From: Eledone cirrhosa
Taxonomy: Eukaryota
Length of the DNA: 64,000 bases
Direction: 5' to 3'
Assembly: GCA_964016885.1 (NCBI GenBank)
Contig: OZ024747.1
Location: 30,318,001-30,382,000, forward strand
Both the position numbers and the translations under genes were made by a program. Shown in pieces: positions 40,561 through 41,252 of this stretch. The notes under the pieces were generated by a model. The model was not told the DNA's origin, did no database searches, and saw only the letters and a list, made by a program, of their open reading frames with translations. How positions within the stretch are numbered: the stretch's first letter is position 1; every line of letters begins with the position of its first letter.

Positions 40561-41016
40561 TCAACAAGAAAGTGATTGTCCACAACGCCAATGTTGATGA
40601 AAAAAATGGCCCAATTTCTGTTTCTGTTTTAGTTTAATTTTCACAGCCTGTGTACAACAAACTGTTGATTTATTTAGTATTCCAGTCAGTAATAACTTAG
40701 TATACCTGATGACCTGATTGATGGTGGTGGTAGTAGTGGTGGTGGTGGTGGTGGTGGTGGTAGTGGTGGTAGTGGTGGTGGCATTGGCATTAGTAATACT
40801 GACCACGAATGCTATATTTTTCGCTGTTCTGAAAGGTTTAGCTGGAAGTAGCTCCAAGTCTGAAGTAAAAGGGAGATTAACAGAAGTGGTATCAGTGTAA
40901 ATGACCTTCCTTTCCATCATCATCATCATTGCCATTGCAATCACTGCCCAGATTCTGTGGATTTCAATCACAAGCTTGTCATGTTGGTTTTGTGTAACAG
41001 CTAACAATAACATTAG
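40561..41016 (-). other. 151-codon open frame directly in frame after the host stop codon (candidate readthrough extension)
   Basis: TGA(41019-17) CTA ATG TTA...; ORF track 40561..41013, 150 aa including a poly-Thr run. Confidence 0.4.
40722..40780. repeat. (GGT/AGT)n trinucleotide repeat (poly-Thr on minus strand)
   Basis: Directly visible. Confidence 0.95.
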
Positions 41017-41252
41017 TCATACAATAGAGATCCTTTGACACTTAGGGCTCTCCTGTGTTAGGAGTCTGTCAGTTGTATTACATCCTGATGAGGACACGTA
41101 ACGAACTTCCACATGATCTTGTTCAGGTGGCTTACGGTCGCCAAATTTTTTCCGATGATAAAATCCACATATCACCAAAATTATACAGAAGAATGATGAG
41201 ATAGATGTCCCTACTGCTATATGGAGAATCTGTATACTCCCAGTTGCAGGAC
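41017..41252 (-). CDS. Terminal coding exon of a probable single-pass (type I) membrane protein: TM helix plus ~48-aa cytoplasmic tail ending in a class I PDZ-type motif; no upstream exon identified in the window
   Basis: Strong acceptor tttctatttctcttctttacag|GT (phase 1). Translation xPATGSIQILHIAVGTSISSFFCIILVICGFYHRKKFGDRKPPEQDHVEVRYVSSSGCNTTDRLLTQESPKCQRISIV* shows a hydrophobic stretch, a basic stop-transfer HRKK and a C-terminal S-x-V. Confidence 0.82.

Follow-up and report, generated by a model that had tools for sequence, protein, structure and literature searches.

The last exon of the host gene

We analyzed a 64,000-nucleotide (nt) stretch of the genome of the octopus Eledone cirrhosa (GenBank assembly GCA_964016885.1, contig OZ024747.1, positions 30,318,001 to 30,382,000; hereafter the window, numbered from its first letter), the minus strand of which carries the last coding exon of a gene for a CUB-domain membrane protein. 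This exon ends in a UGA stop followed by CUA and by a further 151 in-frame sense codons, and we argue below that the stop is probably read through at a low rate. Within the window, tblastn matches the host protein at this last exon alone, the remaining gene lying outside. The translation of 41252-41017 agrees at 77 of 77 residues with the ends of O. bimaculoides XP_014770360 and O. sinensis XP_029640694, and a contig of run X4 equals the window over 40785-41256 and then diverges from it; because it departs at the exon acceptor, we read this contig as spliced RNA. The features of the exon are:

41017-41252, minus strand: last coding exon of the host gene (transmembrane helix, cytoplasmic tail and stop), with its acceptor AG at 41254-41253
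41158-41229, minus strand: predicted transmembrane segment ILHIAV...CGFY, delimited by inspection, a hydrophobic run kept in 11 aligned orthologous sequences
41020-41031, minus strand: C-terminal -ISIV, which fits the class I PDZ ligand pattern

Searched with Pfam, the octopus host protein (P0001) shows five CUB stretches and an LDLa domain at 738-775 that narrowly misses the curated cut-off (expectation value, E, 0.004). It shows no protease domain, a result at odds with its database name, "tolloid-like 2". Class I PDZ ligands follow the pattern S/T-x-V, and among 61 proteins fetched from octopus, other cephalopod-like, gastropod, and bivalve sources (isoforms and fragments counted), 43 end in S[IM]V, six have another tail, three continue through W, and nine are fragments or other models. 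Judging from these protein ends, the terminal -ISIV is kept across molluscs; taken together with the TGA found in three relatives (organisms B, C, and D, treated below) and in the non-cephalopod orthologue L001, they point to a first stop that is old and conserved rather than a recent nonsense change.

Several separate observations concern this exon and its relatives. Between octopus and cluster-2 proteins the last exon is identical at 76 of 77 residues, the whole proteins being 88% identical, a contrast that indicates unusually strong constraint on the membrane segment and tail. The last Val codon plus TGA (41022-41017) resembles a splice donor, and a Pomacea RefSeq isoform (P0013) and a Bulinus model exit the exon exactly at this Val codon, losing the terminal Val. 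The O. vulgaris model P0042, with a different tail, has a weak match only at 38497-38450 (E 0.012). Proteins P0003, P0006, and P0036, in which S[IM]V is followed by W and then by W, K, or Y, not L, were considered as edited stops and set aside, as they are better read as gene calls with TGA taken as Trp; P0003 and P0006 begin in apparent intron sequence.

An open frame beyond the first stop

On the minus strand, the last codons ATC TCT ATT GTA (I-S-I-V, 41031-41020) are followed by TGA at 41019-41017 and then by CTA ATG TTA. An earlier, sequence-only reading of this stretch had described a TGA-CTA stop with 151 sense codons beyond it and short alternative frames, all of which agrees with the coordinates below; its candidate edit position, 41017, is the A of the TGA, and the roughly 20 codons it ascribed to a threonine repeat are a run of 19. 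The leaky context that it named holds as far as UGA-CUA, although the fourth base is not G, the actual context being UGA-CUA-A. The features of this region, where organisms B, C, D, and H are relatives whose contigs were compared with the window, are:

41013-41022, minus strand: leaky stop context GTA-TGA-CTA-A around the first stop, with no difference listed over 41022-41008 in organisms B, C, and D
40564-41016, minus strand: in-frame extension, or second open reading frame (ORF), of 151 sense codons, recognized by its open frame and its conservation in relatives
40561-40563, minus strand: second stop, TGA, the same in organisms B and H; the nearest listed changes are at 40559 and 40558
40915-40974, minus strand: moderately hydrophobic stretch, extension codons 15-34, with a Met run at its end (best 19-residue hydropathy 1.74)
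40860-40882, minus strand: splice-acceptor-like site within the extension, a pyrimidine tract plus CAG, phase 1 in the extension frame (16 of the 20 upstream bases are pyrimidines)
40723-40779, minus strand: (ACC/ACT)19 Thr run, every interruption of which is synonymous in the extension frame; outside the comparison with relatives
40613-40630, minus strand: 18-nt stretch of hexamer-like units, absent in the alignment with organism H (an in-frame indel)

The other two frames after the TGA close at codon 1 and codon 12, and antisense frames over the extension reach at most 60 codons. With the Thr run excluded, 100,000 dinucleotide shuffles left the 131 non-repeat codons of the extension open 20 times, which bears out the earlier claim of an unusually long frame; in AT-rich noncoding parts of the window, one of 2,946 stop-to-stop intervals reaches 131 codons, and CTA follows 14 of 977 noncoding TGA trimers. 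A few frames as long as this would be expected per genome by chance, because a frequency of 2e-4 applies to some 25,000 genes (an assumed number), but the combination of such a length with a UGA-CUA context would not.

Searches for homologues of the extension gave no credible match (one unscored candidate, three tandem-repeat proteins, and no usable Atlas match), and Pfam matched its Thr run only, always below the cut-offs. Two other readings of the region were rejected: that AATAAA at 40674-40669, within the extension, is a constrained poly(A) signal, since it is altered in organism H, and that a peptide is encoded in frame +2 after the first stop, since amino-acid changes there are radical.

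Conservation of the extension in close relatives

The first half of the comparison (40785-41400) drew on contigs of runs X4-X7, four of the 24 listed runs, and the second half (40315-40718) on runs X4, X5, X7, and X18, with real cover from organisms B and H alone, as X4 gave none there and X7 just short spurious pieces. The extension is thus represented by two contigs in B, by its first half in C and D, and by its second half in H; the alignments leave unplaced two to five substitutions per contig, as well as two 1-nt gaps of B in the second half. The run X4 contig, read as spliced RNA, indicates that a transcript includes 77 or more codons from the start of the extension. A contig of run X18, whose RNA nature is a guess, spans the second stop.

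Contigs of organisms B, C, and D span the first stop and the extension to 40785-40790 with zero indels and zero new stops, and TGA-CTA-ATG is identical in all three; the C and D alignments stop at the acceptor (41259 and 41261), with the extension matching at about 96%. Of the nine sites that differ within this first half of the extension, two are synonymous and the other seven change the residue (L>M, K>N, I>F, M>L, M>L, I>V, and F>I); none falls at codon position 2. The hydrophobic stretch has one synonymous change along with I>F, M>L, and M>L. Over the second half, organism H has a single 18-nt deletion within the frame, whereas all eight of its frameshifting indels (seven of 1 nt and one of 4 nt) lie past the second stop; together these make up 29 of 29 gap letters (binomial P 0.019), and organism B has one substitution inside versus 11 after the second stop, along with two listed deletions after it. 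Over the parts covered, the frame is kept in B, C, D, and H as far as the listed changes show, and the second stop in B and H. The alignment of orthologues that the sequence-only reading had proposed as a check comes out in favor of readthrough within a set of close relatives—TGA-CTA and the open frame are kept, with no early stop and no listed frameshift.

The conservation also differs between the extension and the sequence beyond it. In organism B, three substitutions are listed in 387 nt of extension versus 11 in 243 nt past the second stop (P 0.0035), and in H the corresponding figures are four in 137 nt versus 20 in 243 nt (P 0.048); when B and H are pooled and the comparison region is limited to the 91 nt directly beyond the second stop, the counts are 7/524 versus 9/182 (P 0.009; B alone, P 0.03). 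Across the 14 listed sites in the extension, non-synonymous changes have a mean BLOSUM62 score of +0.7, a value reached by 0.45% of neutral placements, versus -1.7 and -1.8 in the other two frames, and this conservative signal is also present when only the 52 codons ahead of the internal acceptor are counted (eight sites, P 0.006 to 0.03).

A number of observations weigh against a translated extension. For H alone, the adjacent 91 nt are indistinguishable from the extension (P 0.49), the H changes in the extension include L>R and K>T, and the BLOSUM statistic was picked post hoc, after the first half of the data had been seen. The extension has no synonymous excess (3 of 14 sites versus 21% expected), whereas all five differing sites in the host exon are synonymous. 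Frameshifting indels do not appear until 40468, which is 93 nt beyond the second stop, and they are clustered in homopolymer runs, largely missing from the extension; the 18-nt indel of H would tend to be in frame anyway, because hexamer-like units were removed. The four organisms are close relatives, with C and D sharing most changes, no relative covers the whole frame in one piece, and the H evidence bears on the second stop alone. As to the stop itself, A stands at +7 where the best motif has G, and no stable fold was found 3' of it (z +1.5). Finally, the UGA-CUA motif is absent from the non-cephalopod orthologues read: L001 ends in KVSIV with GTA TGA TGA TAA (L001 700-730), the opposite of a leaky context, and P0003, P0006, and P0036, as read above, continue with W, K, or Y. 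L002-L004 gave only weak matches of 21-25 residues on long contigs.

Alternative explanations

Taking both sides together, we consider it probable, on the comparative signal from these close relatives, that UGA-CUA is read through at a low rate to give a weakly constrained tail. The same data could instead reflect a conserved non-coding block of the 3' untranslated region (UTR), with sites for RNA-binding proteins or microRNAs, whose frame is open by chance and whose readthrough is noise. The missing synonymous excess suits such a block, as do the peak of conservation at 40790-40901 (where C and D are without any listed change, synonymous or not), the location of the indels past the second stop in homopolymers, the few such frames expected per genome, and the long octopus 3' UTRs with conserved microRNA sites (PMC9699675). 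We nevertheless judge it unlikely, as it requires a long frame, a UGA-CUA context, frame-specific conservative changes, and a drop in conservation near the second stop to coincide. Quite unlikely, too, is that the distal 99 codons form an alternative last exon, joined through the acceptor at 40861-40860 (or an AG 8 nt further) to give a PDZ-less form with no need of readthrough. That acceptor has a good pyrimidine tract and, like the host exon's, is phase 1 in the extension frame; phase-compatible donor-like sites lie at 41135 and 41081, with 41022 suiting the second AG; substitutions near the internal acceptor are few; and the Pomacea model P0013 departs from the exon at its final Val codon. 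This scheme, however, would make the first 52 codons intron or UTR, although they stay open in the same frame, lack indels in three organisms, and change conservatively, a signal that splicing cannot explain because those codons lie upstream of the internal acceptor. Moreover, a change at position 41134 removes the GT of the donor at 41135 in B, C, and D, the X4 contig continues across the internal acceptor without a splice, no joint was seen in the contigs compared, and none of six O. bimaculoides/O. sinensis RefSeq entries uses such an exon.

The sequence-only reading had left the choice between readthrough and adenosine-to-inosine (A-to-I) editing, and of the two it is readthrough that the evidence favors. 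Editing by ADAR from UGA to UGI, read as Trp, would open the extension with the same expected conservation pattern, and coleoids recode heavily, their editome pipelines allowing for stop-loss edits such as UAG to UGG (PMC8382921). It is very unlikely here: at 41017 the spliced X4 contig, from the closest-matching organism, agrees with the window (a majority-level result, as contigs drop minor variants); five cluster 2 members, on 40 contigs, all end in ISIV; no complementary partner within 6 kb beats shuffled controls, and folds are no better than shuffles; the CUA context is unnecessary for editing; and stop-to-Trp edits are reported as non-existent in a preprint that ranks squid edits from RNA and proteomics (bioRxiv 10.64898/2025.12.15.694494). 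An in-frame ATG lies 3 nt past the stop, identically in B, C, and D, so that ribosomes might reinitiate one codon past the UGA to make a separate 150-residue protein, but this ATG stands in a weak context by the start-context consensus (C at -3, T at +4), and a homologue of a stand-alone protein was not found, which is weak evidence. Cellular mRNAs rarely show reinitiation after a long ORF, and we regard it as highly improbable at this site. Lastly, the UGA might be a selenocysteine codon, given that the stop is UGA here and in the readable molluscan orthologues (by deduction for P0003, P0006, and P0036). We lend this almost no credence, for there is no Rfam match at gathering score in 15000-46000, no SECIS (selenocysteine insertion sequence) family with E up to 1 in 39500-41400, and L001 has three consecutive stops.

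Probable low-rate readthrough and its possible consequences

The favored explanation, low-rate readthrough, builds on three direct observations, namely the UGA-CUA context, the open frame, and the frame's conservation pattern. Insect readthrough candidates are recognized by a second ORF of >100 codons, frame-preserving indels, C after the stop, and a rise in indels past the second stop (PMC5100048), and the octopus pattern matches these criteria in its TGA followed by C, its second ORF of >100 codons, and its frame-preserving indel, and less clearly in the rise past the second stop. Mechanistically, UGA-CUA would slow termination and a near-cognate tRNA would then decode the stop, at a rate of perhaps one to several percent by analogy with mammalian reporters. 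The product would gain one residue plus the 151-residue tail, likely under weak protein-level selection in close relatives, and would retain the ectodomain and membrane anchor with -ISIV no longer a free end. Burial of -ISIV would follow from the sequence of any extended form; altered PDZ scaffold binding, and altered placement or turnover, may result, and uncoupling of the extended protein from PDZ scaffolds, as suggested earlier, is a conceivable outcome. This arrangement would be young, because non-cephalopod orthologues keep -S[IM]V-UGA without the CUA context.

A second route to a form without the PDZ end

In the X4 contig, the 30 letters upstream of the acceptor translate by hand as S-V-G-L-I-L-H-stop-S-E, then T-G into the last exon, in frame. 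The same tail ends six of the 15 members of the cluster containing cuttlefish protein P0045, directly after LDLa (P0045, P0050, P0052, P0055, P0056, and P0057); it is hydrophobic (mean 2.7) and, by inspection, looks like a glycosylphosphatidylinositol (GPI)-anchor signal. The stop of this upstream exon, again UGA, lies 10 nt before the last junction, and a search of the window shows that the exon is not present there. Because the upstream exon has its own stop, the membrane/PDZ exon becomes 3' UTR, and the stop-bearing exon is a second, transcript-supported route to a PDZ-less form. On such short-isoform transcripts ribosomes never arrive at the ISIV stop, and the X4 contig is therefore itself no readthrough template; the transcript would likely escape nonsense-mediated decay, because its stop is 10 nt before the last junction. 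As a side observation, readthrough of the upstream exon's UGA would likewise stay in frame.

These elements could be joined in a broader scheme, which we consider doubtful as a whole: octopods would have evolved functional readthrough of neural genes separately from insects, and the LEV-10-like gene would act as a three-way C-terminal switch—between a short, possibly GPI-anchored form made with the stop-bearing cassette exon, the normal membrane form ending in its PDZ ligand, and one in which readthrough places the ligand under a 151-residue tail. If true, cephalopod proteome diversification, so far credited mainly to A-to-I editing, would gain a further layer at translation.

Other features of the window

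Elsewhere on the minus strand, inspection of the translation indicates a long interspersed nuclear element (LINE)-type element at 52348-57183, with a 610-codon frame and a 1000-codon endonuclease/reverse-transcriptase frame that share one reading frame, with one stop codon between them. A further reverse-transcriptase fragment lies at 59185-60144, and GC-rich, degenerate reverse-transcriptase-like sequence, identified by inspection, occupies 46900-49600 (minus strand) within the host intron.

Comparison with known systems

Catalogues of functional readthrough cover insects, vertebrates, fungi, and viruses, and the mechanism itself is already known. In the literature searched, mostly without subscription journals, we found no case of stop-codon readthrough in a cephalopod or other mollusc. 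A testable octopus case, in a protein laid out like a synaptic organizer that clusters receptors, would justify a genome-wide scan for second ORFs in cephalopods, and would offer a direct test of readthrough as a switch on PDZ ligands.

The host protein is laid out like LEV-10 of C. elegans, which clusters acetylcholine receptors and combines five CUB domains with a single LDLa domain and a single membrane helix (PMC9083331); the octopus protein likewise has five CUB, LDLa, and one predicted membrane helix, a likeness by domain layout only, and last-exon searches returned no nematode or insect sequence. SOL-1, SOL-2, and Neto are discussed alongside LEV-10, NETO1/2 end in PDZ ligands, and Drosophila Neto isoforms differ in their intracellular tails (PMC9083331).

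Among vertebrates, UGA-CUAG readthrough is described for OPRK1, OPRL1, AQP4, and MAPK10 (PMC4132726) and for VDR (PMC5868278). The octopus gene resembles these cases in having UGA followed by CUA, in coding for a protein of membrane or neural type, and in showing no 3' structure, of which UGA-CUA readthrough has no need in mammalian cells (PMC4132726; PMC5868278). Its last sense codon is GUA, the usual one of OPRK1 (PMC4132726), and, as in VDR, the extension is conserved in a narrow clade only, with a weak amino-acid signal. It differs in its +7 base, A, in the length of its extension (151 codons versus 13-67), in its mollusc host, and in that readthrough is proposed here from sequence alone. 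Of the seven bases in the UGA-CUAG motif, the first six are called universally conserved (PMC4132726), and the octopus gene, with CUA-A, falls outside the CUAG class as defined; it may nevertheless act like a member without the full motif, because UGA-CUA alone gives 1.5% readthrough in human embryonic kidney (HEK) cells (PMC4132726). AQP4 is also a counter-example to the loss of PDZ coupling by extension, since there readthrough strengthens rather than weakens binding to the PDZ scaffold alpha-syntrophin (PMC10701521).

Abundant readthrough has been placed in Pancrustacea only (PMC5100048), a study in whose main text the string "mollus" is absent. Unlike the examples in Drosophila and Anopheles (PMC5100048; PMC4999894), the octopus extension has no synonymous excess, but it resembles them in being a long, low-complexity, Pfam-free second ORF that is lineage-restricted, keeps its frame, and is followed, less sharply, by a fall in conservation past the second stop.
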